IMG/VR virus record: IMGVR_UViG_3300028914_000066
Coordinates: 1 to 64,000 of that record
DNA: 64,000 bases
DNA from: a virus
Lineage: Duplodnaviria; Caudoviricetes
Reading direction: 5' to 3' (one strand)
Shown here: piece after piece, positions 1,005 to 64,000 of the stretch
Layout of the letters: each line of letters opens with the position of its first letter
Position numbering within the stretch: the stretch's first letter is position 1
Translations under genes and position numbers: made by a program
The notes under the pieces: generated by a model
Databases searched by the model: none
Told to the model about the DNA's origin: nothing
The model's input: only the letters and a program-made list of their open reading frames with translations

Positions 1005-1070
1005 TTTACAACAGATTTGTTAATTATTAATATTAAGTTTACTATAACTTCCCCGTAAAAGAAGAATATG

Positions 1071-1301
1071 CTATTTAATTGTATCTTTCTTCTTACGTGG
1101 GAGTTTTATTTCTATAGTTACTGCAATAGGTTCATCAGTATATTTAAGTTTAGGAAATTCCTCTTTATCAATTTCCATATAATCTCCTACTGCTGTTGAA
1201 GCCCATAAACCTGTAGCTGGATTAAATATAGGTTTAGCTTTTGTATAGATATATAAATAGTTATCTTTATCTCTTGCTATATATCCATTAATCTTTAGCA
1301 T
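1071..1301 (-). CDS. hypothetical phage protein
   Basis: 76-aa ORF with YIARDKD...LYIY...P...W pattern common in small phage proteins. Confidence 0.75.
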   Translation of the reverse strand: MLKINGYIARDKDNYLYIYTKAKPIFNPATGLWASTAVGDYMEIDKEEFPKLKYTDEPIAVTIEIKLPRKKKDTIK

Positions 1302-1303
1302 AA

Positions 1304-1537
1304 TTATAAAACTTTATCAGATGCAATATGTAATAAATTATGAATATCACGCATGAAATTATTAGTTTCTTCTTCTGATTTATTATCTTTTTTCAGTTTC
1401 ATATACATAGCTTGCATAAAAACATCATAAGTTTTATCAAAAGAATATTTCATTCCAACTTTTACTCCTCTATAAAACCAAATAGCATTAGTAATAAATA
1501 CTAATACTATACAAGTTATAAACATTACTGTTTTCAT
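1304..1537 (-). CDS. small membrane protein
   Basis: N-terminal hydrophobic helix VMFITCIVLVFITNAIWF. Confidence 0.7.
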   Translation of the reverse strand: MKTVMFITCIVLVFITNAIWFYRGVKVGMKYSFDKTYDVFMQAMYMKLKKDNKSEEETNNFMRDIHNLLHIASDKVL

Positions 1538-2199: not shown

Positions 2200-2213
2200 A
2201 ATTTTATTATTTG

Positions 2214-2284: not shown

Positions 2285-2292
2285 ATACCTAT

Positions 2293-4807: not shown

Positions 4808-5035
4808 TTATGCTATTCTTCTTTTACGGGCGAGTTTACTGCGCCTTAAACTTAAATATTGTCTAATATTAAACATTTGTCTAACTGCTTTATCATCATA
4901 ATATTCCATATGTCCTCTTATAAAACGTAATGTTGAAGTAATATCAGATATTAATTCACTAATATCATCAATATCTTCAACATTACTATATCTATATAGA
5001 ATATCATTTAATTTCTTTTGAGTGTACTCTTTCAT
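4808..5035 (-). CDS. hypothetical protein
   Basis: 75-aa ORF. Confidence 0.65.
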   Translation of the reverse strand: MKEYTQKKLNDILYRYSNVEDIDDISELISDITSTLRFIRGHMEYYDDKAVRQMFNIRQYLSLRRSKLARKRRIA

Positions 5036-6745: not shown

Positions 6746-6764
6746 AATTCACTTCTTTATCTTC

Positions 6765-7908: not shown

Positions 7909-8625
7909 AACGGGAGGGGTATAATGAGAGTGGCTCACCTTTACATTTTTAAACCTATAATTTACCTATAATCTCATCTTTTCCTTCACTATTTTCTTCT
8001 TTTCTTATAAAACCAACTTTATCTTCTTACTTTTAAACACTATTTTTATTTATAAGCCCACCTTCTCTTTTATCTTCTTTTCCTCTTATAATTACTTCTT
8101 TTTCTTCTCTATTATCAGCTAACTCCTTTTCAAGCATCTTCTCTTCTTACGGGGGAGCTTCTATTACTCTATGTTTCTTATTTATTCTTTGTCTTACTTT
8201 TGTATATTCTTGTTTATTTGCTCTATAAAAAGCCCTATCGGGGGTATCAAAATCTTCATTTTGACTACGGGGATCATTATCAGCACCAGCATACTCTTAT
8301 TTTCAAAAATATAATTTAATATAAGGTTGTATTAGCACCCCTTTAAAAGAAGAATATGCTAAAATGACCGCTATTAATTATATAAGTACAGGTACATATT
8401 ATTAATATAGTTAAAGCAGATAGTGATTTGTTAAAAACTCTTAAATTATACATTTTTTAACAAAAATATGAACAATGTATTAATATATGTACTATATTTG
8501 TTGCTGTAAAGTGTACTTATAGTTCCGATAATGATTAAGAACATTCTCTGAATAGCCTTCCAAATATAAGTACACTTTATTTTGATAATACATTTAACCA
8601 TAATATAAACTAAATTATTACAATT

Positions 8626-12237: not shown

Positions 12238-12541
12238 GTCTGATTCTATTAAATCTTCTTTTACGGGGGTACGAGTATCAGATGAATATGCTTTAGTTTC
12301 ATATGATGCTCTTCGTATTGCAAATGCTAAAATGGTAGAGCTTGAGTATGAAAAGGAAATAAATAAAAATCTTAAAGAAATAGTTTTTAATGATTCTATA
12401 ATTATAAATCAATATAAACAATATATTGAAGCTGAAGAAGTTGAGCATAAAGCTGAAGTTAAAAAACTTAAAAAAGAACTTTATGTTACAGGTGGCTGTG
12501 GTATTGGTTGTTTTGTAATATTGATATTAGTGATTATATAA
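12161..12541 (+). CDS. putative spanin-like protein
   Basis: Signal peptide, coiled coil, C-terminal hydrophobic tail; 77-nt overlap with previous gene. Confidence 0.5.
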   Translation: MVRLKKLRILMTVLLLAFSMNLLANESDSIKSSFTGVRVSDEYALVSYDALRIANAKMVELEYEKEINKNLKEIVFNDSIIINQYKQYIEAEEVEHKAEVKKLKKELYVTGGCGIGCFVILILVII

Positions 12542-14844: not shown

Positions 14845-17265
14845 ATGGCTGGAGAAATTGTACAGAATTTAGGTGGTCGTGCTGATTTTCCTCCTCAGAG
14901 AGTTAGTTGGGAAGAAAAGCAAAAACCTTATTGGTATTGTAATAGTATTGACTATATTATATCAATGGGTATGGCTATGAATGATAGGTCTGAAACTGAA
15001 ACTCAGATTAATATTCTTCATGGTAATATTCCTCAAGAATTTTATAAGAAAACATTAAATCCTTATAATACAGATAAAGAGAAATACAAGAGATTTCCTG
15101 CTACAATGAGAAATCTTGATATTATGTCTGATATTATAAGACGTTATGTTTCCGAATATCATAAAAGCCCACACGAATTTATTGTTGGTGCTAGTAATCC
15201 TGAAATTGTTTTAAATAAAAATGCTAAGCTTAAGGAAGAAATTCTTTTAGCTGCTCAGCAAGCATTTATACAAGAATTTCAAGCTAGATTTCAGCAGATG
15301 CAAGAAGAAGCTGCTCAGCAAGGTATTCCTGCTGATCAACTTAATCCTCAAAATGCTATGCCTAATCCTGAAGAATTTATTAGAAACTTTGAGGATAAAT
15401 ATGTTGATGATGAAAGCAAACAAGGTCAAGAAGTTCTTGAGTTTGTAAGAAGTTGTACTGATGATATTGTAATGTATCTTAGTGCTTTCAATCAATGGGT
15501 TTCTTTTGGTGAATGTTATAGCTATACTGATATACGTGGAGAACAAATAATAAAAGAAAATGTTCCTATTATAGAAGCTTATCCTATTCCAAATAATAAA
15601 CAATTTGTTGAAGATCATGATATGTTTGCTAGAAAAATGATGCTATCTTATCAACAAATTATGGATTTATTTGATGATGATTTTGATGATAGAGATAGAA
15701 ATTTCTTAAAAACATATTATCAAAATAAAGGAGCAACATCTGCTACAAAAATATTATATTCTCAATATTTTGAAACATATGGTGATATATGTGAGAAATA
15801 TACTGATGAAGATAGGCAATTATTTAATAAACAAGCTACAACTGTTTATCAAAATAATACAGGTCTTTTTGAAGTTTGGCATGTTGTTTGGAAAGGAGAA
15901 GCAAAGAAAGGTATTCTTACATATGTAAATGAAGCTGGTCTTATAGCTACTAGAATAGTAGATGAAGATTATAATTTAAATAAGGCAGCTGGAGATATTT
16001 CTATTGAATGGGAATATGATACTCAGATATATGAAGGATATAGAATAGGTACAAGACAATGTGGTATTTATCCTATTAAATGTAGACCTATTAAATATAG
16101 TAGAAACAATAAACTTCCTTATAATGGTCTTATGGAGGTTCTTCCTTTTATGGGAAAATTTAGTATTGTTGCTACTGTAACTCCTTTCCAAATAATGAGA
16201 AATATCTTTGCTTATCATAGAGAAATGTTAATAGCTAAAAATAAACTTCTTATTTTACTATTACCTAAATCTCTTGTTAGTGGAGATGAAGATGATATAA
16301 TATACAGAATGGCTGCTGATGGTGTTCTTTATGCTAATGATGAAGATGATGAGAACACATTAAAACTTCAACAAGTTAGACTTTTAAATGCTAATATTGG
16401 AGATTATATTAGACAAGTATCTGAACTTATAGAAAATGTTCGTCAAGAGGCTTGGGATACAGTTGATATGAATGCTCAACGCTATGGTGATATTCAACAA
16501 TCAGCTGGTGTTGGAACAACACAAGAAGCTGTAGCTAGAAGTTCAATGGGCAGTGTTATTATAGTAACAATGTTTGATGAATTTAGAAAGCGTGATTATC
16601 AAAGAGATTTAGATTATGCTAAATTAGCTTATATTGATGGACTTGAACAAGGTTTCCAGGATGTAGATGGAAATAGACATTATCTTAGCTTAGATGTAAA
16701 TAGTTATGTATATTCTTCTTACGGGGTATTTGTAAAGAACGATGCTAAGACTAAAGATAAATTAGAACAATTAAGACAATGGGCATTTAGTGCAGCACAA
16801 AATGGAGATCTTGACGCAGCTCTTGCAGCTATTACTGGTGATAATATTGCACAAATAACAGATGCTATAAAACGTTTCAACGAAATTAAGCAAGAACATG
16901 AAGCTCAAATGCAACAAATTGATTCTATGCTTAAACAAGAAGAAATTCAAAATAGACTTAAAGAGATTGAGGCTAAAGGTGAACAAGATAGACTTCTTGA
17001 AAATCTTAAATATGAACATGAGCTTGCTCTTAAGTATATTGATATTGATACAAGTCTTAATAATACAGACGAAGCTAAAAATAGGTTAGATACATTAACT
17101 GAAAATAATAAACGAGAAATAGAATTAAGCAAACTTAATCTTGAACGTCAAAAAATACAAGCTGATTTATATAATAAGGCTGCTGATAGAGCAATTAAAA
17201 AGTATGATGTTGATATGAAAGTTAAGATTGCTAAGACAAATAAAAATAAATACGATAAAAAATGA
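14845..17265 (+). CDS. portal protein
   Basis: 806 aa after terL, FPPQRVS N-terminus, coiled-coil C-terminus; crAss synteny. Confidence 0.9.
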   Translation: MAGEIVQNLGGRADFPPQRVSWEEKQKPYWYCNSIDYIISMGMAMNDRSETETQINILHGNIPQEFYKKTLNPYNTDKEKYKRFPATMRNLDIMSDIIRRYVSEYHKSPHEFIVGASNPEIVLNKNAKLKEEILLAAQQAFIQEFQARFQQMQEEAAQQGIPADQLNPQNAMPNPEEFIRNFEDKYVDDESKQGQEVLEFVRSCTDDIVMYLSAFNQWVSFGECYSYTDIRGEQIIKENVPIIEAYPIPNNKQFVEDHDMFARKMMLSYQQIMDLFDDDFDDRDRNFLKTYYQNKGATSATKILYSQYFETYGDICEKYTDEDRQLFNKQATTVYQNNTGLFEVWHVVWKGEAKKGILTYVNEAGLIATRIVDEDYNLNKAAGDISIEWEYDTQIYEGYRIGTRQCGIYPIKCRPIKYSRNNKLPYNGLMEVLPFMGKFSIVATVTPFQIMRNIFAYHREMLIAKNKLLILLLPKSLVSGDEDDIIYRMAADGVLYANDEDDENTLKLQQVRLLNANIGDYIRQVSELIENVRQEAWDTVDMNAQRYGDIQQSAGVGTTQEAVARSSMGSVIIVTMFDEFRKRDYQRDLDYAKLAYIDGLEQGFQDVDGNRHYLSLDVNSYVYSSYGVFVKNDAKTKDKLEQLRQWAFSAAQNGDLDAALAAITGDNIAQITDAIKRFNEIKQEHEAQMQQIDSMLKQEEIQNRLKEIEAKGEQDRLLENLKYEHELALKYIDIDTSLNNTDEAKNRLDTLTENNKREIELSKLNLERQKIQADLYNKAADRAIKKYDVDMKVKIAKTNKNKYDKK

Positions 17266-17835: not shown

Positions 17836-18606
17836 ATGCCTAAAAGAAGTTTAGAACTAGGTGGTAGAAAAGAATATACTGAAGAAGAAATACAACAAGC
17901 TTTTAATAATCCTTCAGTTAGACAAGCATATCTTGAAAGTGGTTTTGATAGTTTAGCATATAATAAAGGAAGTGGTGCTACCGGTATATATCAAATAACA
18001 CAAGGAGTTATAGATGATTATAATAAAGCTAATAAAACTAATATAAAATTAGCTGATATGATTCATCCTACACCAGCAAAAAAGGTTTATGATTGGGAAA
18101 TGAATGAACTTTATAATGCTAGTTGGCAACAGAATCCCAATATGACTGAAGATGTTAGAAGAGCCAGAGCCTATTATGCATATAATGCTGGTAGAGGTAA
18201 AGCTAGAACTTCATTAAATGATCTTGCTGCTAAAAAAGTTAATATACATACTAATCTTGATTTTGTTAATTATATTAATCCTGAAAGCAGAGATTATGTT
18301 AATTTTATGATGACAGGACAAGGAAATGATGTTCATAGAAATTATGAACAATTTAAAAAAGCTTTTTTAAAAAATCCTGATGTTATTAAACAAATTAATT
18401 TTGAAAATGGAGGATATATTAGCACGCCTGTAAGAAGAACATTAGCAAATGGTGGTGGAATTTATATTAAACCTTCTCATAGAGGTAGACTTACTGAATT
18501 GAAAGCAAGAACTGGTAAAACTGAAAGTGAGCTTTATAATGATGGTAATCCTGCTCACAAGAAAATGGTAGTATTTGCAAGAAATGCTCGTAAATGGAAT
18601 CATTGA
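17836..18606 (+). CDS. lytic transglycosylase (SLT) with crAss-type C-terminal domain
   Basis: ES...GATGIYQI...AYNAG motifs; C-terminal IYIKPSHRG...FARNARKWNH. Confidence 0.85.
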   Translation: MPKRSLELGGRKEYTEEEIQQAFNNPSVRQAYLESGFDSLAYNKGSGATGIYQITQGVIDDYNKANKTNIKLADMIHPTPAKKVYDWEMNELYNASWQQNPNMTEDVRRARAYYAYNAGRGKARTSLNDLAAKKVNIHTNLDFVNYINPESRDYVNFMMTGQGNDVHRNYEQFKKAFLKNPDVIKQINFENGGYISTPVRRTLANGGGIYIKPSHRGRLTELKARTGKTESELYNDGNPAHKKMVVFARNARKWNH

Positions 18607-18642
18607 GTAGAAGAAAGTAATAGTGCAATCCCTATTACTCTA

Positions 18643-18679: not shown

Positions 18680-18941
18680 AAATTATTTTGTTTTGTAAAT
18701 AATTTTTGCATACCTTCCTTTTAAGGGGGTGCTTGGTACGAGTATTCACGATTACATTTTTACGGCATTGTGGGGCAGAATTTTGCCGTCTATTGACCTA
18801 ATTTGTGGCTGGATTAGTTGTCAATTTTTTGGCTATAAATAGGTGCAAATATAGGTAAAATAATATAAGCAGTATAAACAATATATGTATAAGATGATGA
18901 AAATAATTGTGATAATAAGCGTTAAATTTTTGATATATTAG

Positions 18942-21794: not shown

Positions 21795-22937
21795 ATGGGT
21801 CCAACTGTAAATACTCCAAGTAATCCTGCTATGGGAGGTAGTGTTAGTACTACAAAGAAAGAAGATAATGAAGTTAAACAGAATCAGGAACAAACTAATT
21901 CTGCTCCTAAGAAATATACTGAGGAAGAATTAAATGCTCCTTATACTGATGAAAGAAAAATAACAATAAAACCTGTTCAATATTTCTCTGCTTATCGTCA
22001 AGTGAATAAACACGTTCTCGGTAACAAGAAACAAGTAATAGGTAGTTCTATTAAGAGTTCTAGAGTATTAAGCTCTAATAAAGGTGAAATTGAAGCATAT
22101 TTTCCTGAACTTGTAGGATTATCTCCTTCACATCCAGATTTTATAAGTCGTGTTAAGGGTTATCTTAATAACATACAATTTACTGTAAATAATATCGGTT
22201 CTGTTATTGATTGTTCTTTTAGATATGATCATCTTAAAGATTATCTTAAGATAAAGGAACAAGAAGATAAACTGATTGCTGAGAGAAATAGTACTAATAG
22301 AAATGACACATCTGCTTTATCTAAAGCTGTTGAACTTTGGGCAGATAAACTTAATGAACTTGAAGGAACTAAATATCAATTTGGTAGACCTTTAAACATT
22401 AACAATTATATTCTTTATAGACATTGTTTACTTTATAAGGATGTTGCAAAAGACATTTCTCTTATTAATGCAGACAATTCTATTAGATTCTATATTGAGG
22501 ATAATGAAAGAGAGGCTGAACGTAAGAAGAAGATGGTAGAAGAGAAGAAGTTAGCTATGCGTAATTTCGTTGCTCTTGATGCAAGTGATAGTAAGCGTGA
22601 AGCTGTATATATTCAGGTACTTATCCAAAATGGTGAGAATTTAGGTTATGCTCTTAATAGAACTAAGGAAGAAAAGTATGACGTACTTATGAAGTTCGTT
22701 AATGAAAATCCTGATAAGTTTAATAAGATGTATAATGATAAGAATGTTGAATTGAAGTCATTTATTGAGCAACTTGTTCTTAGAGGTGAGTTAGTAAGAG
22801 CCGAACATAATCAAATGCTTTCTACTGCTGAAGGTAAGTTTATTGGTAATAATGTAACAGAAGCTGTTGCTTATTTCAATAATCCTGATAATAAAGGAGA
22901 ATTAGAAAGCTATAAGAATAAACTTAATAAAGCATAA
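21795..22937 (+). CDS. conserved crAss protein downstream of MCP
   Basis: 380 aa; synteny. Confidence 0.75.
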   Translation: MGPTVNTPSNPAMGGSVSTTKKEDNEVKQNQEQTNSAPKKYTEEELNAPYTDERKITIKPVQYFSAYRQVNKHVLGNKKQVIGSSIKSSRVLSSNKGEIEAYFPELVGLSPSHPDFISRVKGYLNNIQFTVNNIGSVIDCSFRYDHLKDYLKIKEQEDKLIAERNSTNRNDTSALSKAVELWADKLNELEGTKYQFGRPLNINNYILYRHCLLYKDVAKDISLINADNSIRFYIEDNEREAERKKKMVEEKKLAMRNFVALDASDSKREAVYIQVLIQNGENLGYALNRTKEEKYDVLMKFVNENPDKFNKMYNDKNVELKSFIEQLVLRGELVRAEHNQMLSTAEGKFIGNNVTEAVAYFNNPDNKGELESYKNKLNKA

Positions 22938-24779: not shown

Positions 24780-24790
24780 TAATTAAGTTA

Positions 24791-24825
24791 TATTGCATCT
24801 CTTCTTTTACGGGGGAGGTGCAATA
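24791..24825 (+). terminator. hairpin containing the dispersed motif
   Basis: TATTGCATCTCTT...GGGGAGGTGCAATA. Confidence 0.55.
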
Positions 24826-24836
24826 TTCTAAATATT

Positions 24837-25709: not shown

Positions 25710-27034
25710 ATGATGCAATTAAAAATATAACAGACTATGTTAATATAAGAGTTCCTTTAGAACAATTAGAATTATATTATAGTATGTTAGCAGCTCTTTC
25801 TGATTACGGAGAAGATATGCTTAAAGATTGTAAAGCTTCATGTACAGATAAAGATTCTAATATTATAGAATGTTTTAATATGTTTAGTGGAGCTTGTGCT
25901 AAATATGAATTAGGAGATATTAAAGGTGCTAATGTTATATTTAACTATGTTAAAAGTACTTTAGGACTTAAATATAAAAATCTTGTAATTCCAGATAATA
26001 TAAGCTTCCCTGTAAAAGAAGAAAATGTTACAATATATTTTGATTTTAAAAATAAAGAATATTATGTAGAAGAAGGAATAGTTATTCCATTAGAAAGTAT
26101 TGATATAATTGGTCCTGATGAAATTGAGGGTGTTTCTCAAGAATATACTTATATATTACATCCAGATAATACAACACAGACAGGAGTTGTTTGGGAAGTT
26201 ATACAAGGAGAAGGATCTCAATATGCTTATATAGATAGTACAACAGGAGTTTTATATATTAAATCAAATGCTTCAAATAGTTTAGTTAAAATAAAAGCTA
26301 CAAGTATAACAAATCCTGAAATAAGTACAATAAAAGAAATTATATGTACTTATAATAATGAAACAGAAGAAGTTGATTGTGTAGTTAATGTAACATATGA
26401 TAGTTCTATAGCTGAATTTAGAACTAATAGAACAATTTTAGCTACTGTTGTAAATTCAACAAAAGATGTTCTTAGATTAGAATTACATAATATTGATGTT
26501 GTAGAAAACGATATTATAATAGATATTGCTAATTATCAATCATCTAAAGAATTTACTATTAATTTAAATGTAGTTGGTCATAATAAATATTATGTTGAAG
26601 CTGTATTTTATGATGGAACTATAAAGAAAAGTAATATAATAGATATTTGTGCATATCCTTGTTGCTATATAGGAGAAGCAACACCTACTGAAAGTTCATA
26701 TTATCAAGTAATAGGTAATTCTAATTATAAACTTGAACCTATGTTAGATATAGCATCAGTTGTAGGAAAAGAATATCCTGTTAATGTTACACGTGATGGA
26801 AATTATATTTATATAATTGTTCCTAGATTATCTGGACATATGCAAATAGATGAAGTTCGTTTAGATGAAACTAATATGTCTGAAGGATTTTATTTTGATG
26901 TAGATACAACTGTATCAGATATAATTATAAATGGAATACAATATGGTGTTTATGGTCTTAAATTAAATAATAAAGGATTTGTTGCACAAGATAATCCTTA
27001 TAGATTATTAATAACTAAACCTCAAGAATTATGA
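25706..27034 (+). CDS. tail-associated protein with Ig-like domain
   Basis: PDNTTQTGVVWEV...AYIDSTTGVL...VKIKATS is Big_2-like. Confidence 0.7.
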   Translation: MNDAIKNITDYVNIRVPLEQLELYYSMLAALSDYGEDMLKDCKASCTDKDSNIIECFNMFSGACAKYELGDIKGANVIFNYVKSTLGLKYKNLVIPDNISFPVKEENVTIYFDFKNKEYYVEEGIVIPLESIDIIGPDEIEGVSQEYTYILHPDNTTQTGVVWEVIQGEGSQYAYIDSTTGVLYIKSNASNSLVKIKATSITNPEISTIKEIICTYNNETEEVDCVVNVTYDSSIAEFRTNRTILATVVNSTKDVLRLELHNIDVVENDIIIDIANYQSSKEFTINLNVVGHNKYYVEAVFYDGTIKKSNIIDICAYPCCYIGEATPTESSYYQVIGNSNYKLEPMLDIASVVGKEYPVNVTRDGNYIYIIVPRLSGHMQIDEVRLDETNMSEGFYFDVDTTVSDIIINGIQYGVYGLKLNNKGFVAQDNPYRLLITKPQEL

Positions 27035-29344: not shown

Positions 29345-32300
29345 ATGGCTAAAAAATATTCAAATAATCCTATTCCTGATAAATATACTGATTGGGGTAA
29401 AGATCCTACATATCATAATTATCCTTTTAGTGGTAGATCAGTTCAAAATTATATAAAGGAACAATTTGACAATAAAGTTGGTTATCTCCATCCAGATGCT
29501 AGTAATGAAAATTATTTATTATTTGCAGATGAAGATAACTATAACCTTTATATGTCAGATCCTGTACAATATGCAGATTTGCTTATAGGTACTGTTCCTT
29601 TAGCATCAAATTATGTAGTTGCTATAGATTTAGAAAATACTGAAACTATCAATTATATTAATTATGGTGATACAGGTAACTATATTCAGGCTTACTTTAA
29701 AGTTTTAAATAAAGGTGGTGCTGAAATTAGTGATGAGTTTAAAGTTACAATTACAATTCGTAATGGTTCAGCTGTAACTACACTTCATAGAAATGCAACT
29801 TATGGTACATTATTTAGCTTAAATATTGATGAATATTTAACTGAAGGAACTAATGTTGTTACTTTATCAGTAGCAGCAGTTACTTATGGTGTAGGTAGTT
29901 CTATATCATTAATGTATCATGCTATTGTTCTTAGAGTATCTGATGATTTAGATTTATCAGAAGTTTATGGTTCTGAGAATGAAGTTATTGAAGCTGCTGT
30001 ACATATTGAAGGTACAGGTACTAAAAGAATTGAATGGTTTGTTGATGGAGTTCAACTTCCTTTTGATTCTCAAACTGATGAAACATCTCAATCTTCTACA
30101 ACTTTAACAAGATATATTTCTGTATCACAATTAGCTGAAGGTAGACATAATCTTCAATATAGGGCAGTTGTTAATATTAATAGTGTTAATTTCTATAGTG
30201 ATACTCAATATAGAGATTTCATTGTTTATAGAGGACAAACTTTAGATACTATTATTGTCAATTCTTTCTCTTATAGGGGAGTTTCTCTTATTGATCCTAC
30301 TGATGATCCTATTGATTTGGGTTCAGTAGAGCAATATATGACAAAAGAAATAAAGTATGCTATTTATAATCCTAATAATGTAGCAGTAAATTCTCTTGAA
30401 ATAACTATTGCTGGTAAAACTACTACAGTAAATGCTGATAATTATAATGAATATACTTATGAATTAAAAGCATTTAGTGCAGGTTCAACAAGTTTATCAT
30501 TTAGTTTAAATGGTACAACATTGGAATATAATGTAGATGTTGAACAATCAAGTTTAGATTTAGATACAATAGGTAATACTGAATTTGAATTTGAAGGTAA
30601 TTGTAGAGTTAATACATCTATTGATAAACGATTAGAGAATTGGTCTTTCCATGCTTTGAGTGGTAGTACTTATGCTGCTTCTATGAGTGGATTTGATTAT
30701 ACTGAAAGAAATGGTTGGACAGGTGAAGGATTAATGATAGGTGCTGGAGCTTCTCTTGCATTTAATTGTGCGCCTTTAAATTATAATATTGTTCAAAATG
30801 GTGGTACATTTGAATTTGAATTTGAAACAAGACGAGTTCTTGATGATGATGAAATAATTTGCACTTTGATGCAAAATGGTGTTGGTATTAGAATTACTGC
30901 ATCTGAAGCTAAGATTGTATCACAACAAGGTGTTGAATTATCTTGTAAATATAAAGCTGAAGAAAGAAATAGAATTACATTTGTAATTAATCCTTTAAAT
31001 GCTGCTGTTAATAAAGGTCTTGTATTTATCTTTATTAATGGTATTCTTTCTGGTGTAAAGAATTATCAAGTTGGTGATAGTTTTACATCAAATATATATG
31101 CTGTATTTGCAGGTAGTGCTGATGCTAATATTGTTCTTTATCAATTAAGATTTTATAGAAGAGCTTTACGTCTTGATGAAGTTCTTAATAACTATATTCT
31201 TTACAGACCTACTGTTGATGAATTATTAGAAGCTTATGATAAGAATGATATTTATACAGGTGGTTCATTATCACTTGATAAACTTTCTGCTCAAACTCCT
31301 ATTATAATTATAACAGGTAATGTTCAAGAACTTCAAGACTTTACAAAAGCAGATAAAGGAACATATAGAAAGATGGCTAAGATTGAAGTTATAAATACTG
31401 ATGATCCTACTAGAAATCTTACTCTTGTTGATGCTAGTATGCGTTGTCAGGGTACATCTTCTATGAACTATCCTAAAAAGAATTTCCGTTTCTATACTCA
31501 GGCTGATAGTAAAGATGAAACTGTAGCATCTTATACAACTAAGATGTACGATTATGAAGGTACTGAATATACAGGTGAAGATAGACTTTATGCTTTCAAA
31601 CAAGGTGCTCAGCCAGTTAAAACTTGGTGTTTGAAAGCTGATTATGCTGAATCTTCTTCAACACATAATACAGGTACTGCAAGACTTTGGAATAATCTTC
31701 TTAAAAATGCAGTTATTCAGAATATAGATCAAAGATATTGTCAAAAAGGAAGTATTCCTTATAATGGTACTACTCCTTGTAGAACACAAGCTCAGCAAGC
31801 TGCTATTGATAATAACTATGAATATGATGTTCGTACTGCTATTGATGGATTTCCTATTGTACTTTTCTATCATCTTAATGAAAATGATCCTCTTATATTC
31901 TTAGGAAAATATAATTGGAATAACGATAAATCAACTGAATCAGTATTTGGTTTTAAAGATGTTCCTGGCTTTAATAATGAACATATGGAATGTTGGGAAG
32001 TTGTTAATGGTGACTATCCTGAAAACTTATTTACTGATTTAAGTAATTGGGATACTGATATTCAATATGAAGGTAAAACCATGAAAGGATGGCAACGTGC
32101 TTTTGAAGCTCGTTATCCTGATGATAGTGGTAAACCTTCAGAACAAACTCGTGCAGATCAAGCTCTTAAAACTTTTGCAACTTGGATTAATGGATTGAAA
32201 ACTGCTGCTAAAGTTCAAGGAGGTCAGGTAGTTGTAGACGATGTTTCAGTTATGGCTACATTTAGTGAACAAAAATGGCTTCATATGGATGTTTATAAGA

Positions 32301-36997: not shown

Positions 36998-37197
36998 CTG
37001 CTAATGAAGAGAAAGAACTACTTAGATTAACTAAAGAAAATAACTTTATGTTAAAACAAATGTATGGTTATATTTCTCATCATATAGCAAATATTAATCA
37101 AGAGAATACGGATGACTTTATTAGAAATATTCTTGCTAATGTTATTTCTAACTCCCCTTTAAAAGGAAATGATAACAATGGATTTAACAATAGATGA
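36994..37197 (+). CDS. hypothetical protein
   Basis: 67 aa, ATGA overlap. Confidence 0.65.
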   Translation: MTANEEKELLRLTKENNFMLKQMYGYISHHIANINQENTDDFIRNILANVISNSPLKGNDNNGFNNR

Positions 37198-37759: not shown

Positions 37760-38083
37760 ATGGAAAATATTATTAATGAGATTATTCAATCAATTCTTAG
37801 TAGTTTTGATTTTGCTTTTTGTCTTATAGTTAATTTAGCAACTTACTTTGTTATTCAAGGTCTTACTGCTTGTAAACTTAATCTTGGTACTTGGGCTAAA
37901 AGAGGCATTTTAGTAGCAATCATTCTTCTTACGGGGGTGCTTTATAAGGTTACTAATGCTGATGATATAAGAGTTCTTATTAATAGTGCAATACTTGCAC
38001 CTGTTAGTTGGAGTTGGATATTTAAACCTATACTTAAATATTTAGGTCTTGATTATAAAAAGAAAGAAGATGGCAAAGAGTAA
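37760..38083 (+). CDS. putative holin
   Basis: 107 aa, three hydrophobic helices, charged C-terminus. Confidence 0.6.
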   Translation: MENIINEIIQSILSSFDFAFCLIVNLATYFVIQGLTACKLNLGTWAKRGILVAIILLTGVLYKVTNADDIRVLINSAILAPVSWSWIFKPILKYLGLDYKKKEDGKE

Positions 38084-41934: not shown

Positions 41935-42364
41935 CTGTCTATATCTAAATGTTTTATAATAATTTAATTTTGGCTCTAAACGCATTAATTTTCAGGTAGT
42001 TAGATACTTAATTTAAGTTTAAATATGCCGTCAAAGCATATCCCAGCAGGGTTATGGGCTTGTTTTTCTTATTTATATATTATATATTTGCAATACATAT
42101 TATATATAATAATATTATATAATATATAATTAATAATAATATACATAATATAAATATAAGCACCCCTGTAAGAAAAGAATATACTATTCTGGGATATGGT
42201 TAAACAGATTTTCTTTCATACGCACTTATTCATATTGTGTAATTTATCTTAATAATTAGGTTAGTGATTTTGGTTAATAAACATAAAGTAGTTAGAGATA
42301 ATAACTTTAATGTTGTTCTTCTTTTACGGGGGTGCTTTAATTAAGATAATTATTCATATTTTTA

Positions 42365-48736: not shown

Positions 48737-50163
48737 GTAGATATAGTTTAAAACGTGGAGGTCAAAGACCTCAAGCTTGGATTGGAGCAGTTATTGGTTT
48801 AGCTAGTACAGCTGCTAGTTTATATAGTAATTGGAAAAATAGACAAGCTCAAGTTCAAATGAACAATGATAATATTGCAGCACAAAATGCTGAATTACAA
48901 AGACAAAATCAATTACTTATGGCTAATAATCAAGCAAATACTTTAAATAATTATTATGCTAATGAGGAATTGAGAAGAAGAAATTTAGGACAAGATTTAA
49001 TTTATGCTTGTGGTGGTAAAAAAAGTCTTAGAGCTGCTACAGGTGCTAAAGTTGAAATAACTGATGGACTTACAGGAATAGTTCCACTTGGTAACAATGC
49101 ATTCCTTTTAGAGGGGAGTTCTCATAATCAAGTAAACGAAAGTGGACAAACAGGTATAGGAATGAAAATAGGTAATAAAACTGTAGAACTTGAAGGTGGA
49201 GAACCTGTTCGTTTTACTGATGATAGTATGCAAGTATTTAGTAAAAGACTTAAATTAAAAGAATTAGGAGGACTTAGTCCTGCTAAAGCAATAGAATTAG
49301 GTTATAATCCTGATATAGTATTTCCTATACAACAAAAAGCTAATGGTAATAACAGCACCCCTGTAAAAGGAAATAGACATAAAGCAGGTTATGGAGATTG
49401 GATTAATTTTGGTAGTGATATAGCAACTGCTTTAGGTACAGCATTAATTAATAATAATGCATATAAGAAATTAAATGTAAATCTTCAAAAACCTAATTAT
49501 TATGAAGAAACACCTGTTATTTTAGATACTAAATATCATAATGCAGGACAACTTGCTAATTTAGAAAGAATGAGATTAGCAGGTAATACAACTATAGGTA
49601 GAAATAGTGCTAATTCTCAACTTGCTCAAGCTAGAATGAGATTGAATAATCTTGATTATGGTTTGAAACAAAACGAATTAATTGATTATGCTGCTAATTA
49701 TAATGCTAATATGAGAAATCAGCAAGCTCAATTAGAACAAGGTGTAAGACAAAGAAATATAGCAGCTAAAAATTTATGGTCAGCACAAGTAGCAGATACT
49801 ATTAATCGTGAAAGAGAATTAGGAAATAATCGTACTCTTATGAGAGGACAAAATTGGAGTAATATGTTAGCAGGATTTAATAGAGCTGGAACTAATTTAT
49901 ATACTGCAATTAATCAAAGAAAATCAGATACTGATGCTTTAAGAGCTTATATGGCTGCAAGTAATCCTGGAAGCGATGAAACTTTCTTACTTAATGGAGG
50001 AACTTTTGGACCTGAAGTTGATGCAGAATATTATAATAGATTTAGAAATGTTGCAAAGACAGAAGAACAAATAGCTTTAATGAATAAAATTAGAGGTAGA
50101 ATGACACCTTGGCAAAGACGTCATTATCTTGGAGAAGATAAAGAAACAAGTAAGATTGGATAA
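48733..50163 (+). CDS. virion cargo/ejection protein
   Basis: Hydrophobic AWIGAVIGLASTAA, GSSH...G...VELEGGE, Gln/Asn-rich helices. Confidence 0.7.
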   Translation: MSRYSLKRGGQRPQAWIGAVIGLASTAASLYSNWKNRQAQVQMNNDNIAAQNAELQRQNQLLMANNQANTLNNYYANEELRRRNLGQDLIYACGGKKSLRAATGAKVEITDGLTGIVPLGNNAFLLEGSSHNQVNESGQTGIGMKIGNKTVELEGGEPVRFTDDSMQVFSKRLKLKELGGLSPAKAIELGYNPDIVFPIQQKANGNNSTPVKGNRHKAGYGDWINFGSDIATALGTALINNNAYKKLNVNLQKPNYYEETPVILDTKYHNAGQLANLERMRLAGNTTIGRNSANSQLAQARMRLNNLDYGLKQNELIDYAANYNANMRNQQAQLEQGVRQRNIAAKNLWSAQVADTINRERELGNNRTLMRGQNWSNMLAGFNRAGTNLYTAINQRKSDTDALRAYMAASNPGSDETFLLNGGTFGPEVDAEYYNRFRNVAKTEEQIALMNKIRGRMTPWQRRHYLGEDKETSKIG

Positions 50164-56100: not shown

Positions 56101-59100
56101 GTCAAGGTTATGAAAGAAAGATGAACGTAGAGAAGAAAAAGGTAAGTTCTTCTGCATCTGAAAATCCCTCAGAATCAAACGAAAGTTTAACTGAAGAGGA
56201 TAGTCCACAAACCGACCATGAATCCAACACAGACAGGCAAAATGGCATTGAGGGCGAAAATACTGATAAAGATACCACACCGAAATTGCCAAAAGCAAAG
56301 ATTACTATTAATGCTGATGATAATAATAAAATAATTGTTGAGTCTGTTGCAGATGATAGTACTGGTACTAATGTAGTTGAACTTGAACCTTTAGAAGAAA
56401 ACAATTATAAAATAATAATTGCAAATGATGCTAATAATGTAAACGAATTATTGCAAAGTAGTACATTATTTGTTGGATTTGATAGAACTAAAGAAAATAA
56501 TGATAAATATGAAAGAGAAATAACTAGATCTCCTTATATTAATATAGGAAAAGATGAAAATACTGGAGATGATATTTATAAAGTAGTAAATACAGGCAAA
56601 ATTGTTTATAAAGAAAAACAACCTGAAGCTAAAGCATCAATTCCTTTTACGGGGGATTTAGATGGAGCTGATATACCTAAAGATGCTTTAGCAGATGTTA
56701 ATGTTCCTCTTACTAGCACACCTTTAGGAAAAGAAATGTTTGATGCTAGACAAGATATTATGAGAGCTAAAAGTAAATTTTGGCTTGAATCTAAAACTCC
56801 TATTCAACAAATATGTGATGAATTAAATCAACAATTAGAAGAAATTTATGGTGATGGTGATAGAGAAACATTGGATGCTGTTAAACAAGATACTCCTAAA
56901 GTTGTAATATCAGGATTATTTGGCGAAAATGAAATTAAAGATGAAGAAATTCAAAATCTTAAAGAAGGTGTTGAAAATGTAGTAAAACATTCTATTATTG
57001 ATGAAACTATTAAACTTGAAGAAGATGTTCTTAATTCAATTCATAAAATAATTCCTTATTATTTAAATAAACACAAATCTTCATCATTTAATATTGAAGG
57101 TAAAACTAAATATTATATTAATCTTAATCAACTTCTTGATGATATTAACGAATTATATGGAAATTCTGACATTAGTGCTATAGTTCACGATTTTTTAGTA
57201 TCATATCTTAATACTAATGAAGGTAAACAAAGATATGCTATTACTTATTTAGATCCTAATTCTCCAGATTTTCTTGAAAAAATAAATGCTAAAGATGAAA
57301 CTAGATCTGCTAATAATTTAAATACTATTCAAGAAGCCGATATTAACAAATTTGGCAAACAAGGTAGAAATGAATTAAATAAATTAATTCCTGGAAGTAA
57401 GATTGATGTAGAAATTTCTCAATATGAGAATTATGATAAAATTGATGATTATTTATCATTGAAATATAATGGTATAGAAATTGGAGGATTAGCTTTAGCT
57501 AATTATATTGATGGTAAATATAGTAAGTATACTCAAGGTTGGAATTATATATTATCTGAAGATAACGGTTATATAAATTGTAATTTATTAAATGTATTTA
57601 TTGATTTACTTAATGATAAACACGTTTATAATACTTTATTAGAAATAAGAAGTGAAAATACAAGTGAAGAAGATAAAATTAGACTTAAAAGAAATTTAAA
57701 TAAATATATAGCTAATTTTAAATATAATGGTGAAAGATTAGGTAAAAAATACGTATTTGAAGGAACTAAAGAAAATAAATCTAATAGAGGACAACAACCT
57801 GTAGAACATTTAATTCTTCTTACAACATATGATGAAGCTTTAGCTAAAGCAAGTTATGAAGAAGCTAAACATTTATTACAAGACACTATTTATAAGTTTA
57901 TACAAAAAATGTATTATACTTATGATGCAGCGAAAAGTGTTAAAGATAAATTAAATAGAGGAGAAAAAGTATCAATAACTGTAGATGAAATACCTGGTGG
58001 TAAATTATTACAACCTGTAGAATTTGTTACAAAAGATACTTATTCTCAATTAAATCAATCTAATATCGCTGTTGCAAATACTGATAAAGTATTTTTAGGT
58101 ATAAAAGAATCTAATGAAAATGGTAATAGTGGTTTAACTGTATTAAATGATGGACAAGAAATATTTATAAATCACTTATATACAGGTAGTATTGTATTAT
58201 CATTTAAAGACAAAAATGATAAATTTTGGCATACTAGAGCAGTATCTGTTAAATTTAATGATGAACACTTAGATAAAAATAGTAAAGCTTACGAATGTAT
58301 TCAATTTATACAAGATGAATTTGGTAGAAGAATTGATGATTGGAATAAGAATAATGATAATTTTGTTTCTTTCGTTGATTATTGTAGAAAACTTTTTTCA
58401 AAGAATTATAAAGGTAAAGATAGTACTAATGAGTCTTTACTTAGAAATGTTCAATTCAGATATACTAATAGTACTATTAGATTAGGTGATGAAAATAATA
58501 TTTTAATTGAAATTTCTAGGAATAGAATTAAAGTAAGCGGTAAAAATGCTATTGAAACTATTTATAATAAAAAAGATATAACAGGTAATGACTTTAAAAA
58601 AATAATTAAACCTTTATTAGATAAATCTATATTTAATATAAGTTATACAATACTTAAAGAATTTAGTAATAAAAATAAATCATCATTGACTAGTGGTTTT
58701 ATTGATAGAAAAGTAGTTACTGATAACGATCCTACTGCTATTCAACTTAAAATAAATTCTGTTGATAAAAATATAGAACCTTTTGTTTATACAGCTAAAG
58801 ACTATAAATCTTTATTAATAGAAGGAGGTTTTCTTAGAACAAATACTAAAAAGTATTCTTATAAAGATAAAAAAGGAAAAACAATTACTAAAGAAGATAA
58901 TTTTGATTATAGTGAAAGTAGTAAATTTAAAATTATAGTTCCCAATTTCAATAAAGAAAATAATAGCTCCCCTGTAAAAGAAGAGATAACTAAAAATGAT
59001 AGAGATATATCTAAAATAGAACAAATTATTCGTGAAGGTAAATATAATCCTATTAGAAAAGCATTTGAAATGACTAATCTTACTAGAATTACTCATGAAG

Positions 59101-60011: not shown

Positions 60012-60029
60012 TTTTAAAATATTATAGAT

Positions 60030-62972
60030 ATGGCTTGTGAAATAACATTTCCTCTTGCAGAAGAGTTATTAAGTAAAAATAAGTTTTATAATACATTAGC
60101 TAGTAAATTTGATACTCAAGCAGATTTATTAGCTTGTTTAGGAAGAATATTTAAACTTGATGTAAAAGAAATTTCTAAAAATAAAACTACAGTAACTAAA
60201 ATCATTTCTGGAGGACAAACAGGTGTAGATACTATTGGTTTACAAGTTGCTAAATCTTTAGGTATTGAAACTGGAGGAACTGCACCTAAAGGTTATCTTA
60301 GAGAACAAGGTGTAGATAATGAAGATATTAAATCTTATGGTCTTGTTGAAATAACTCCTGAAGAACAAGCTGATTATACAAAAAGAAAAGGTAAACAAGA
60401 TCCATATACAGGTAGAACTGAACTTAATGTTAGAAATTCAGATGGAACTGTATATTTTTCTTCAGAAGAAGATAGTGCTGGTAGAACAGCTACAAAAAGA
60501 GCTGCTGAGGAATGGAATAAACCTTTTATTGAAAATCCAACTAGTGAGCAATTAAAAGAATTTATAAAAAATAATAATATAAAAATTCTTAATGTAGCAG
60601 GTAATAGAGGTACAAAGCTTAAAAATAGTAATCAAATTAGTACAATTTTACAAAATGCTTTAATTGAAGAAATTGAACAAGTTAGTGATATTTCTATAAA
60701 TTTTTCTCCTCAATTTAGAGAATGGTATAAAGAACATTATAATAAATCATTACCCACTCTTAATAAGATAACTAGTTCGTCAATAGATGAACTAGTTTCT
60801 TCTGCTTTAGAATATAACTCTAAAGGTGCAGAAGATGGAAATGCTACTGCAAAAGTAAACGACTCTTATATTCTTTCTACAGAATATACAAATGGCAATT
60901 CTACTAGACTTCAAGGTATTAAAATAGCACAAGGTTTTGTATTTGATTCTTATTTTGATTTAAAATATCGTTTAAATCCTGAACAAATAAGACAACTTTA
61001 TGGAACTAGAAAATTAAGTTCACTTACTAAAGAAAATTATCAAACTGAAGTTATTGTAAAATATATGGATGCTTTGGTTGATACTATTAATAAAACTAGT
61101 AGTGATAATGAATTAAATTTAAATGCAATACATGAAAAATATATTACTGAAGATATATTAAATGAAAACTATAACAAATTCAAAGAATTTGGTATTGATG
61201 AAGATAACGCCATAGGATTAGCTAATGTACAAGCAGAATTAAACGCTATAGAACCTTTTGTTAATAAACAAAAGGCTTCTCCTTATGTGCTTAATATTAT
61301 AGCTGCTCTTCATGATATGCTTAATTTTAATGTTGAAAACATAAATGGAAAGCATACAAGAGTTCGCGATGATTACTTTAAAAAAGTTTGGTGTAATAGT
61401 CTTTTATCACAACTTAATATAAAAGATGAATTAGACTATGTTGATCAAATTGAATTACAAGAGGAAGATGAAAGAGATAATGATATTCAAATAGATACTA
61501 GTTTTAGAGATTATGAAAATCGTTTAGGTTCTGATTATAATTCTTATAAATTACATATTGGTAAAGATATCAATATGTATTTAAATCATTTAGATGATAT
61601 TGATTATTCAGAACATAATGATTTTGGACTTCCTTCTAAAATGGATTCTTCTAAAGTTGCATCTTTGTTATATAGCAGTGTAGATAGAAGAAGTCTTGAT
61701 GCTATGATAGAATCTATTAGAGTTTTATCTGAAAAAATTCCTGGATTTAAAGGTTTACAAATTTTATATAATGATTTGAAAGCTAATAAAGATTTAGCAG
61801 CTAAATTTTATGTATCATTTGCAAAATATAAAATGCCATCATTTGCTATAACAGTTGATGGTACGAATATTAATGTAAAGACAAATGAACATCAACTTAG
61901 TAAAGAAAGTGTATTAAGATTTTCTTATTATAGTGATGCTAGAAATACTGCTATTTATAATAATCTTTCACTTCTTGGACAAAAGAAATCTGATGCTAAA
62001 AATGCTATAGATGAATTTGAGAAAAATAGAGATAAATCACATAAAGAAGATGCTGTTATTAAATTAACTTCTTTAATTAAGGAATATATACCTAGTATTG
62101 ATTATGCTAACATTTATAATTTTGTTAGTAAATCAGGTATGGATGAATTACAAGCTATTAGAACAATAAATAGTTTATTAGATGAATTAATTCTTAATAT
62201 AGAAAATAGAAAAAATTATATAGATAGTCAAGCTTCTGATTATATTATGAATAATGAAGTTCTAACAAAAAATATAACAGGAGTTTTAAATCAATTTGTC
62301 AATTATTTATTACCTTATAGTAATCCTTTTGTTCAACTTACTGTTTCTAATGTATTAGGCAAAAATCATTCTGCTTTGGAAAATAATACTTTCCTTACAA
62401 GATTTATGGATATGCTTAATAGTGATTTAAATGATTATAAAAATGGTAAAGTTGGTCCACTTCTCGAACATTGTAGATATTTAATTAATAATACTAAACA
62501 ATTTAATTATAGTAGTATTTTATTAGAACAAACTGATGAAAATGGTATTATTAATCCTGGTTTAGTTAAATATGACGGAGAAGAATTAGTTTATACTCCT
62601 TATGCTAAAGATCTTATTAAAATTATAGATTTTGATGGTATAAAAGATGTATTTGGAGAAGGTGCTACTTATGTAAAAACTTCAGAAGTAGATTATTTAT
62701 TATCTACATTTAATGCTTTCTTTGAAGGTAGAGATGATAAAGTTGATTTTACTTTAGCACCATATCTTTTAAAAACTCCTTCTGATTCTAGTCATAATAA
62801 AGGAATGTATGCACCTGTTCATAGAATTACTAGTACAGATGAATTACATCCTGAATATAGTCTTTATGAATATAATAAAGATATTGTTAAACAACAAACT
62901 AGAGATTTATTTAAGAAAATAAAGTTTGGTAAATACGAAAAAGAAGTGTTAGTAAAGGTGCTGTTGAAATAA
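60030..62972 (+). CDS. virion RNA polymerase, N-terminal part with inserted SLOG (cpYpsA-like) domain
   Basis: ISGGQTGVD...GGTAPKG...RTELNVRNSDGT...NVAGNRG; LKTPSD; coding continues in the -1 frame. Confidence 0.7.
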   Translation: MACEITFPLAEELLSKNKFYNTLASKFDTQADLLACLGRIFKLDVKEISKNKTTVTKIISGGQTGVDTIGLQVAKSLGIETGGTAPKGYLREQGVDNEDIKSYGLVEITPEEQADYTKRKGKQDPYTGRTELNVRNSDGTVYFSSEEDSAGRTATKRAAEEWNKPFIENPTSEQLKEFIKNNNIKILNVAGNRGTKLKNSNQISTILQNALIEEIEQVSDISINFSPQFREWYKEHYNKSLPTLNKITSSSIDELVSSALEYNSKGAEDGNATAKVNDSYILSTEYTNGNSTRLQGIKIAQGFVFDSYFDLKYRLNPEQIRQLYGTRKLSSLTKENYQTEVIVKYMDALVDTINKTSSDNELNLNAIHEKYITEDILNENYNKFKEFGIDEDNAIGLANVQAELNAIEPFVNKQKASPYVLNIIAALHDMLNFNVENINGKHTRVRDDYFKKVWCNSLLSQLNIKDELDYVDQIELQEEDERDNDIQIDTSFRDYENRLGSDYNSYKLHIGKDINMYLNHLDDIDYSEHNDFGLPSKMDSSKVASLLYSSVDRRSLDAMIESIRVLSEKIPGFKGLQILYNDLKANKDLAAKFYVSFAKYKMPSFAITVDGTNINVKTNEHQLSKESVLRFSYYSDARNTAIYNNLSLLGQKKSDAKNAIDEFEKNRDKSHKEDAVIKLTSLIKEYIPSIDYANIYNFVSKSGMDELQAIRTINSLLDELILNIENRKNYIDSQASDYIMNNEVLTKNITGVLNQFVNYLLPYSNPFVQLTVSNVLGKNHSALENNTFLTRFMDMLNSDLNDYKNGKVGPLLEHCRYLINNTKQFNYSSILLEQTDENGIINPGLVKYDGEELVYTPYAKDLIKIIDFDGIKDVFGEGATYVKTSEVDYLLSTFNAFFEGRDDKVDFTLAPYLLKTPSDSSHNKGMYAPVHRITSTDELHPEYSLYEYNKDIVKQQTRDLFKKIKFGKYEKEVLVKVLLK

Positions 62973-64000
62973 CTTATGATAAATTTATGGATACTTTAAA
63001 ACAAGATAGTTTTAAAGTATTTGCTATTAATGAAAAAGCTATAAAAAGACCTTCACAAACTGAACATTATATTACATTTGAAGTTGATGATGAAGGCACA
63101 AAATATACTGTTGTAGTTGAAGGTAAGTATGATACTGAAAATAAAATATTTACTAGAAATACAGAAAATTATTTAACTATAATTAAAGAAGATGAAGAAA
63201 ATCTTTTAGATTTAGCTAATAGAGTTAAAGAATTAATTGCAAATGATATTATAAATAGACGTCATATTACTATTGGAGGAAATACTTGGTATAATGGACA
63301 GTTTTTAACTAAAACTGTAAATAAAGATCATGCTATTTATAAACAAATGCGTAATGCTTTCTTACAAGAAGCACAAAATGCAGGTACTGCTATTAAATTT
63401 ATGTTTGATACAGCAAATGGTAGTATAACTCCAAGTAATTTAATAACAAATAAAAAATCTAAATTCTATAATAATTATCATTATAAGAAAGAAGCTATAG
63501 TAGATGGTAAACTTACAGGTCAAGTTTTCACTTCAGATAGATTTACCTTAACTGATGATAAAGGAAACTTAGTTAATTATATGACTAAGAAATTTGAAGT
63601 TGATGGTAAAGTATATCAAGTAATAAATGATGATGTTATAGATATAAGTAAACCTAATGCTACATTTAATCCTTATAGCATCAATTTCCTTTACGGGGGT
63701 GCTGATTCATACTTACATCTTGATTCTGAGGGTAATGCTAAGCTAACTGCTAAACAAGAAGAAGCTTTAGATTATGCATTAACACAATATATACTAGATT
63801 ATGTTGAAGATAGTAAGAAAAGACTTTTACCTTATACTGATTTAATTCATAGTGCTTCTATGACTTCAGATGATAATATTGCAGAATATGCTCTTAATTA
63901 TCATATGATGTACATTAATTCTTGTGATTTATTTGATGGTGATAGTAAATTCTATAAGGATACACAAGATATATTTAAACGTTTAAAAGAAACTCAAGCT
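62933..64000 (+). CDS. virion RNA polymerase, continuation in -1 frame (open to window end)
   Basis: Stop-free frame from 62933 ending DLFDGDSKFYKDTQDIFKRLKETQA, a pattern recalled from crAss vRNAPs; catalytic motif lies outside the window. Confidence 0.7.
   Translation, partial: MRKRSVSKGAVEITYDKFMDTLKQDSFKVFAINEKAIKRPSQTEHYITFEVDDEGTKYTVVVEGKYDTENKIFTRNTENYLTIIKEDEENLLDLANRVKELIANDIINRRHITIGGNTWYNGQFLTKTVNKDHAIYKQMRNAFLQEAQNAGTAIKFMFDTANGSITPSNLITNKKSKFYNNYHYKKEAIVDGKLTGQVFTSDRFTLTDDKGNLVNYMTKKFEVDGKVYQVINDDVIDISKPNATFNPYSINFLYGGADSYLHLDSEGNAKLTAKQEEALDYALTQYILDYVEDSKKRLLPYTDLIHSASMTSDDNIAEYALNYHMMYINSCDLFDGDSKFYKDTQDIFKRLKETQA

Follow-up and report, generated by a model that had tools for sequence, protein, structure and literature searches.

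The window analysed here, a 64,000-nt stretch that forms the first 64 kb of the 92,969-bp virus record IMGVR_UViG_3300028914_000066, is studded with copies of a 19-nt word that very probably is a cis-acting, polar signal kept by selection at the nucleic-acid level. The source genome is a lytic phage of the Crassvirales, in Intestiviridae and near Hacihdavirus: its portal, terminase and capsid genes share ~76% DNA identity with the uncultured phage cr271_1 (Crassvirales, Intestiviridae, Hacihdavirus) and show more distant similarity to those of prototype crAssphage. Crass-like phages have been reported as the most abundant human gut viruses, and their replication, early transcription and DNA delivery are largely unexplained; a word of ~30 bits found on each strand every 6–7 kb, even in essential genes, and across genera including that of prototype crAssphage, points to an undescribed strand-reading step.

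A 19-nt word dispersed over the whole genome

The initial annotation had described a genome-wide signal of ~20 bp, with 13 forward and 8 reverse copies found by eye. Allowing up to three mismatches, the initial pattern gave 18 matches in the window against 0.04 expected. A position weight matrix (PWM) refined on these 18 matches and then run on the whole genome returned 31 copies over 92,969 bp (18 plus, 13 minus; 30 robust), bearing out the genome-wide claim, with a clean gap in scores between 9 and 16 and only 0.1–0.6 matches in shuffled genomes. All 21 copies found by eye were recovered, to within 1–3 bases, as were two weak window matches (22774, plus strand; 56715, minus strand), and the peptides quoted for copies inside genes were correct. 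The informative part of the word spans 19 nt and carries ~30 bits, enough for uniqueness against a several-Mb host genome: it starts as a pyrimidine run and continues through TAC or TTAC, a purine and four G to W-G-Y-T, with a faint G-C-A-T a few bases upstream.

Copies are evenly spaced on each strand and indifferent to genes

We compared seven Intestiviridae, namely the source genome, cr271_1, four complete IMG/VR relatives (capsid protein 73–83% identical) and prototype crAssphage strain ZA; the spacing tests included an eighth genome, crAss001 (Steigviridae), scored with its own 9-mer. In the source genome, the coefficient of variation (CV) of same-strand spacing was 0.40 and 0.37 for the two strands, against ~0.95 for random placement (P < 0.001). 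Significantly even same-strand spacing was seen on at least one strand in 8 of 8 genomes and on both strands in 4 of the 7 Intestiviridae, with per-strand CVs of about 0.3–0.5 against about 0.95 by chance. Across the eight genomes, a single same-strand gap out of 213 fell below 1.9 kb, compared with ~50 estimated for random scatter, and the median gap was 6.8 kb. Regularity was weaker when both orientations were pooled (CV 0.56–0.77).

Close neighbours are always opposed: all 27 pairs less than 400 bp apart were inverted, divergent and convergent alike. The opposed pairs reported by the initial annotation are real, with eight such pairs and no direct one in the source genome, except that 37150 and 37923 lie 773 bp apart and are not a close pair. 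Orientation switched between successive copies in 22 of 31 cases (15.9 expected, P = 0.03), a real but modest alternation that follows from two interleaved regular sets.

Transcription direction has little bearing on the word, as had been claimed. Leftward genes run from ~8 kb, round the join of the genome ends, to ~74.5 kb and rightward genes from 8.6 to 74.2 kb, and over the seven genomes genic copies were sense in 72 cases and antisense in 48, with intergenic copies split 31 to 35. This lack of orientation preference relative to genes also upholds the view that the word is not an ordinary oriented promoter or terminator. Non-coding DNA, ~9% of the total, held 35% of the copies. This layout is that of a polar signal covering each strand, with a cost per copy.

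Constraint acts on DNA rather than protein

Copies occupy three sense and two antisense reading frames as well as intergenic DNA. Where 23 genic copies were observed, genes with shuffled synonymous codons gave 3.6 on average and never more than 8. At seven copies in positions shared with relatives, third positions of codons for identical residues (the only positions scored) matched in 81% of cases within the word and 67% in its flanks (P = 0.009). The proposal that constraint lies on DNA was therefore upheld, and a protein-coding motif was rejected by the multiple frames, the use of both strands, the intergenic copies and the far lower counts in codon shuffles.

Frames are not used equally. 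Genic copies of the source genome fall in all three sense frames, and the sense-frame counts over the seven genomes are 38, 21 and 9. In genes of at least 100 codons, 10 of 10 antisense copies in the source genome lie in a single frame; over the seven genomes, 34 of 40 antisense copies lie in the frame reading S-[ST]-P-V-[EK]-E, and one of the remaining two antisense frames contains a stop codon.

A control word, TTAGGATC, shows how a coding by-product differs. It has 20 genome copies against ~1 expected, and 19 of 19 genic copies share one orientation to the gene, the coding strand reading Asp-Pro-Asn/Lys. In contrast to the 19-nt word, TTAGGATC is a protein-level feature with the pattern expected of such a by-product; its copies, at window 19018–20277 and at 19 further genome sites, include K-D-P-Q-D-P repeated in tandem where the gene preceding the capsid gene begins.

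Copies in the window

Positions are those of the window, and PWM scores are given in brackets; L034 is a 90%-identical contig, ORF an open reading frame and CDS a coding sequence.

1046..1064, minus: copy between minus-strand ORFs, in a divergent pair with 1087 (27.7)
1087..1105, plus: copy (25.0)
4818..4836, plus: copy (29.0)
8141..8159, plus: copy at the divergent junction of minus-strand and plus-strand gene blocks (33.6)
8334..8352, minus: convergent partner of 8141 (28.9)
12255..12273, plus: copy in a CDS, sense; orthologous copies in cr271_1, G002 and G003 (25.0)
16713..16731, plus: weaker, lineage-specific copy in a portal-like gene; kept in L034, absent in more distant relatives (19.3)
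18421..18439, minus: copy in a CDS, antisense; kept in L034 (26.2)
18715..18733, plus: intergenic copy in the plus-strand slot upstream of the capsid gene; the relatives' copy lies ~470 bp further on (30.1)
22774..22792, plus: doubtful match; drifts from consensus in L034, and relatives have no copy here (16.4)
24801..24819, plus: intergenic copy at the apex of a long hairpin; slot common to most of ~35 relatives (31.5)
26003..26021, minus: copy in a CDS, antisense, in a shared slot (27.9)
30265..30283, plus: copy in a gene for 2263 aa, sense (24.4)
37150..37168, minus: copy, antisense (27.0)
37923..37941, plus: lineage-specific copy in a CDS, made by substitutions, not insertion (ungapped alignment to orthologues without a copy) (31.5)
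42159..42177, minus: intergenic copy in a divergent pair with 42318; pair also in cr271_1 (30.3)
42318..42336, plus: intergenic copy; the tail ring protein gene (ATG at 42364) follows 27 nt downstream (34.1)
49102..49120, plus: copy in a CDS, sense; orthologous copies in G002, G003 and G004 (27.1)
49354..49372, minus: copy in the same CDS as 49102, antisense (31.9)
56641..56659, plus: copy in a gene for 2287 aa (27.2)
56715..56733, minus: weak copy (19.5)
58965..58983, minus: copy in a CDS, antisense (32.9)
63685..63703, plus: copy within the gene of the giant RNA polymerase, with orthologues in cr271_1 and G001 (29.1)

The match at 22774 is probably due to chance, as the L034 sequence departs from the consensus there and a counterpart is missing elsewhere. 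Two neighbourhoods have features of their own. Between the divergent copies at 42159 and 42318, upstream of the tail ring protein gene, lies an almost pure A/T tract (42178–42317), a possible unwinding or control region. Adjoining the copy at 18421, the gene has ~130 nt extra at its 3' end (18440–18608) compared with L034 (8225–8260); as a sign of mosaic breakpoints at copies, this single indel is anecdotal.

Relatives keep the slots and speak dialects

The six other Intestiviridae carry 19–31 copies each, and the core of the word tops the list of most frequent GC-rich 9-mers in every one of them. The pyrimidine run, (T/C)AC and four G are common to the lineages; the tail and some upstream bases are lineage-specific, and within any one genome there are two to four sub-variants. 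These dialects account for the poor yield of exact-pattern scans of IMG/VR, which gave no matches and then just 23 single ones.

Positions are shared as well. Relative to the capsid gene, ~35 relatives have slots near −6.9 kb (plus), −1.7 kb (minus), −1.1 kb (plus), +4.4 kb (plus), +5.4 kb (minus) and +8.2 kb (a pair). Orthologous copies inside genes include the primase site encoding F-Y-G-G (genome position 83479), the copy at 88129 (S-T-P-V-E-E), two in the giant polymerase gene and those at 49102 and 12255 in the window; at such sites the DNA is written in the local dialect, and residues of the protein are altered accordingly. Some other copies are lineage-specific and, in ungapped alignments, were made by substitution. 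Within L034, changes inside copies are confined to degenerate positions. The plus-strand slot before the capsid gene, intergenic here (18715), is occupied in relatives ~470 bp further on, in the neighbouring gene; so the slot is retained while its exact position turns over.

Outside Intestiviridae, the marine crAss-like phage phi14:2 had no over-represented 9-mer (maximum z of 7). The genome of crAss001 lacks the Intestiviridae word and has the 9-mer CTTCTGGAG in 27 copies where 1.7 would be expected, scattered over both strands, with regular spacing among the minus-strand copies (CV 0.54, P = 0.006); CTTCTGGAG may be the counterpart of the word in another family.

Several observations concern crAssphage ZA and its kin. 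Some ZA copies, among them those at 5962, 28217, 28305, 45093, 94417 and 96606, are followed by a GC-rich element, either a tandem array of A-G-C-G-N pentamers or a small hairpin flanked by G-A-rich internal loops; these copies are mostly intergenic, some lie within annotated genes, and the element has no Rfam match. Each of the two RepL genes of ZA is preceded by a divergent motif pair. Contigs of crAss-like phages have been binned into low-GC metagenome-assembled genomes named Tenericutes, Bacilli or Clostridia, and the assembly of a Chitinophaga silvisoli isolate holds several small contigs with the prototype-crAssphage form of the word, one of which encodes a crAss-like capsid protein. Such phage contigs in bacterial bins look like mis-binning or contamination, not evidence of a host.

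Host genomes and candidate readers

Across 301 Bacteroidia genomes, the 12-base core of the word occurred 0–12 times per genome, no more than a reversed control. A host-genome signal, including a host Chi, is thereby rejected for this sample. The initial annotation had proposed a phage or host protein as the reader; the host half of that proposal is unlikely, given the lineage dialects and the lack of enrichment in the sampled hosts, and from the same two findings we infer a phage-encoded reader. The dialects imply that the reader co-evolves with the word, most simply as a product of the phage's own genes.

The binders suggested earlier look weakly annotated. ORFs 43054 and 9171, proposed to be HU/IHF-like, had no Pfam match, and ORF 38553, proposed to be an AlpA-like helix-turn-helix protein, had a sub-threshold match to HTH_17 only. 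The ORF at 42364–43047, directly downstream of 42159/42318, encodes a tail ring protein (Pfam CrAss_Ring_2, E = 5e-51), and the prototype crAssphage genes that match it are annotated as IHF-like; those genes probably encode components of the tail and not free DNA-binding proteins. The annotations, searched for a reader, offered no clear DNA-binding candidate.

The replication block encodes a primase (phrog_12622), a Dda/RecD-like superfamily 1 (SF1) helicase, a ligase, a Gam-like protein, a DUF932 protein and ThyX and, by position and the annotation of relatives, would also hold a family B polymerase. Annotations of relatives include RecT and a PD-(D/E)XK nuclease, and no T7-like polymerase gene is listed among them. 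In cr271_1 (74.7–76.7 kb), an HNH endonuclease gene adjoins the ligase gene; comparison of gene lists suggests that it has no counterpart at 80.8–82.2 kb of the source genome, as expected of a free-standing homing endonuclease.

Start sites for strand synthesis as a tentative mechanism

As for what the polar signal does, we tentatively favour the possibility that the copies are start or loading sites for strand synthesis by a phage enzyme. The candidate would be an enzyme working on one strand, such as a primase, a primase-helicase or a virion-packaged RNA polymerase, starting synthesis at each copy. Recognition would fall to the constant 5' part, the G run would be the first stretch of the copy to be stable in this AT-rich DNA, and even tiling of both strands would place a correctly oriented start within a few kb on any single-stranded or newly entered DNA. 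In its layout, a contiguous word of ~20–25 bp that ends with a G run, the signal resembles the promoters of single-polypeptide phage RNA polymerases. In vitro, the crAss virion RNA polymerase uses single-stranded DNA as its template, and a promoter for it has not been found (bioRxiv 10.1101/2020.03.07.982082). We chose start sites because of the promoter-like contiguous form with its G-rich end, the action per strand, the indifference to genes and the use of single-stranded DNA by the virion polymerase.

Several points weigh against this choice. Initiation itself is predicted from sequence layout, and on sequence alone a reader of DNA could not be told from a reader acting on RNA. Known primase recognition sites are 3–5 nt long, compared with 19–26 nt here. 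Convergent copies 25–250 bp apart, 8141/8334 and 49102/49354 among them, would direct synthesis head-on. No over-represented word occurs in phi14:2, although that phage has a primase as well as a virion RNA polymerase, and crAss001 carries only its short 9-mer. Base skew, sought as a trace of strand synthesis, did not change across the sites.

Alternative readings

A somewhat unlikely alternative to start sites is a Chi-like 'self' mark: a strand-tracking helicase-nuclease or recombination machine would read the word one way and switch from degrading to sparing or recombining, so that phage DNA is protected and repaired and host DNA without the word is not. Polarity, coverage of both strands and a density near that of E. 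coli Chi (~1 per 5 kb) fit such a mark, as do ~30 bits of information, which would keep it absent from host genomes, and dialects that would separate competing phages; the Dda/RecD-like helicase and Gam-like protein of this genome and the RecT and PD-(D/E)XK nuclease annotated in relatives count in its favour as well. Against this, we identified no RecBCD/AddAB-type enzyme in the phage, the Gam-like inhibitor already handles the host exonuclease, and no observation requires a nuclease. Known Chi sites, moreover, are 5–8 nt long and read by host enzymes.

It is unlikely that the copies are sites of sequence-specific single-strand nicks made in DNA that is replicating or in the virion; T5, phiKMV-like and tf-like phages have such sites, but here they would lie on both strands. 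They are brought to mind by published nick words, which are short, asymmetric, strand-specific, located inside and outside genes and conserved within families (PMC11780129), but the published word is confined to a single strand and occurs in clusters, not at even intervals (PMC11780129). Nicking at conserved inverted pairs separated by 25–40 bp, namely 1046/1087 and, beyond the window, 76193/76218, would also come near to double-strand breaks, and no conserved nickase was found, given that the HNH gene of cr271_1 seemingly has no counterpart here.

The initial annotation had preferred a binding array. In an orientation-blind form, for a DNA-organising protein of the parS, nucleoid-protein or centromere type serving genome folding, ejection or maintenance, we consider this quite unlikely. 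Dispersed, high-information words kept inside genes would suit it, and phage N15 has dispersed centromere sites. It does not predict the per-strand regularity, which weakens on pooling, or the near-absence of close same-orientation copies, and it leaves the 27 of 27 inverted close pairs unexplained as well; the binders proposed for it look structural or lack support.

It is equally doubtful that the word is a gene-expression or RNA element, that is, a promoter, terminator or processing hairpin of phage messages in which the pyrimidine and G runs pair, through G-U, around a TAC loop. The two runs can form 4–5 pairs, mostly G-U, so the stem would hold in RNA and hardly in DNA. Intergenic DNA is ~4-fold enriched in copies, 19 of 31 sense intergenic copies lie 13–63 nt upstream of a start codon, and individual sites do form hairpins. 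At slot 24801 (24779–24837, and the same slot in loci L039–L110), the outer stem of a long hairpin covaries between lineages, and some lineages add a T-run; the hairpin has probably arisen round the word as an intrinsic terminator that separates two late genes. The inverted pair 76193/76218, 6 nt apart and located between two replication-block genes, forms a near-perfect 19-bp hairpin (genome 76193–76236) in a 130-nt fold of ~−37 kcal/mol and is also present in cr271_1; the adjacent inverted pair 1046/1087 forms a hairpin too. These remain individual sites: no general extension of the stem past 4–5 pairs was found, whether pairs were sought in a fixed register or folds were compared with those of shuffled flanks, intergenic antisense copies are as common as sense copies, and 48 genic copies are antisense. 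The only Rfam hits were three tRNAs in the window, and prototype crAssphage had none. The Bacteroidetes −33/−7 boxes are absent from the consensus by inspection, which, with the 31 sense and 35 antisense intergenic copies, led us to reject a host-type promoter. An intrinsic terminator in general was likewise rejected, because most copies lie in genes and the description is true at single sites only (24801 in some lineages; 76193/76218).

We regard a packaging or uptake tag, like the DNA uptake sequence (DUS) and uptake signal sequence (USS) or multiple pac sites, as decidedly unlikely. Such a tag would give each fragment or concatemer segment a recognisable start. The overall pattern comes very close to that of USS/DUS, in which copies lie on both strands, evenly spaced, in preferred in-gene frames, with inverted pairs as terminators and with lineage dialects. 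A circular or circularly permuted genome has been reported for crAss001 (PMC6235969), which would accord with such a tag. Nothing here, however, points to fragment-wise handling of phage DNA, and the word is absent from the sampled Bacteroidia. Headful packaging, in addition, needs one start per concatemer.

Loading or start sites for an RNA polymerase ejected with the DNA are highly improbable in our estimate. If genomes were circularly permuted, any sequence in either polarity could enter first, and evenly spaced starts on both strands would let a membrane-anchored polymerase take hold of the arriving end, whichever it is, and draw in the remaining DNA by transcribing it, regardless of gene direction.

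Finally, spread as a selfish miniature mobile element or by gene conversion is extremely improbable: a repeated word with inverted pairs and within-genome sub-variants recalls elements of the miniature inverted-repeat transposable or repetitive extragenic palindromic type, but the unit is just ~19–26 nt, many copies are orthologous across genera, and lineage-specific copies arose by substitution without insertions or target duplications, an origin in ungapped alignments that excludes insertion and, with the old orthologous copies, largely refutes the idea.

Comparison with known systems

Full-text literature searches, including one by sequence words, found no description of the word. New here are the dialect of this lineage, the codon-shuffle and synonymous-site tests, the neutral intergenic orientation count, the frame statistics, the covarying hairpin at one slot and the scan of 301 Bacteroidia genomes. 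The word is an experimental handle, since it supplies oligonucleotide baits for the reader and precise positions where RNA 5' ends, DNA 5' ends and nicks can be sought. If that reader were the virion RNA polymerase or the primase, it would settle what the enzyme recognises; the dialects may also be useful as lineage markers.

A close likeness in pattern is to the USS of Pasteurellaceae and the DUS of Neisseriaceae, which occur in many copies on both strands, more evenly than by chance, in tolerated frames, as inverted-pair hairpins after genes and in dialects co-evolving with their reader. Those are chromosomal words of competent bacteria, read by uptake machinery and present in thousands of copies, whereas the crAss word belongs to a lytic phage, is absent from the sampled Bacteroidia, numbers ~30 copies and is regular per strand. 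Chi, read by RecBCD or AddAB, is similarly G-rich, polar, read on one strand and found once per several kb; it differs in being 5–8 nt long, defined by the host enzyme and enriched in the host, compared with 19–26 nt, lineage-specificity among phages and no enrichment in Bacteroidia for the crAss word.

The nick-associated words of T5, phiKMV-like and tf/Rembedalsseter-like phages are also asymmetric, family-conserved, found inside and outside genes and without an assigned function (PMC11780129). In contrast to that 9-nt word, clustered on one strand (PMC11780129), the crAss word is even and on both strands (18 plus and 13 minus copies here, with similar ratios in the six relatives).

Single-strand initiation (ssi) sites of plasmids, single-strand origins (sso) of rolling-circle plasmids and T7 primase sites share strand specificity, dependence on orientation and the possibility of opposed pairs. 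The ssi and sso elements are structured units of 40–200 nt that occur once or twice per replicon, and primase sites are 3–5 nt; the crAss word, unlike ssi and sso, has no general structure past its 4–5-bp stem. Lastly, promoters of the T7/T3/SP6 type and the hairpin promoters of the N4 virion polymerase resemble it in being contiguous words of ~20 bp with a G-rich start, many copies and phage-specific variants. The known promoters of single-polypeptide phage polymerases all point with the genes, whereas half of the copies of the crAss word are antisense.

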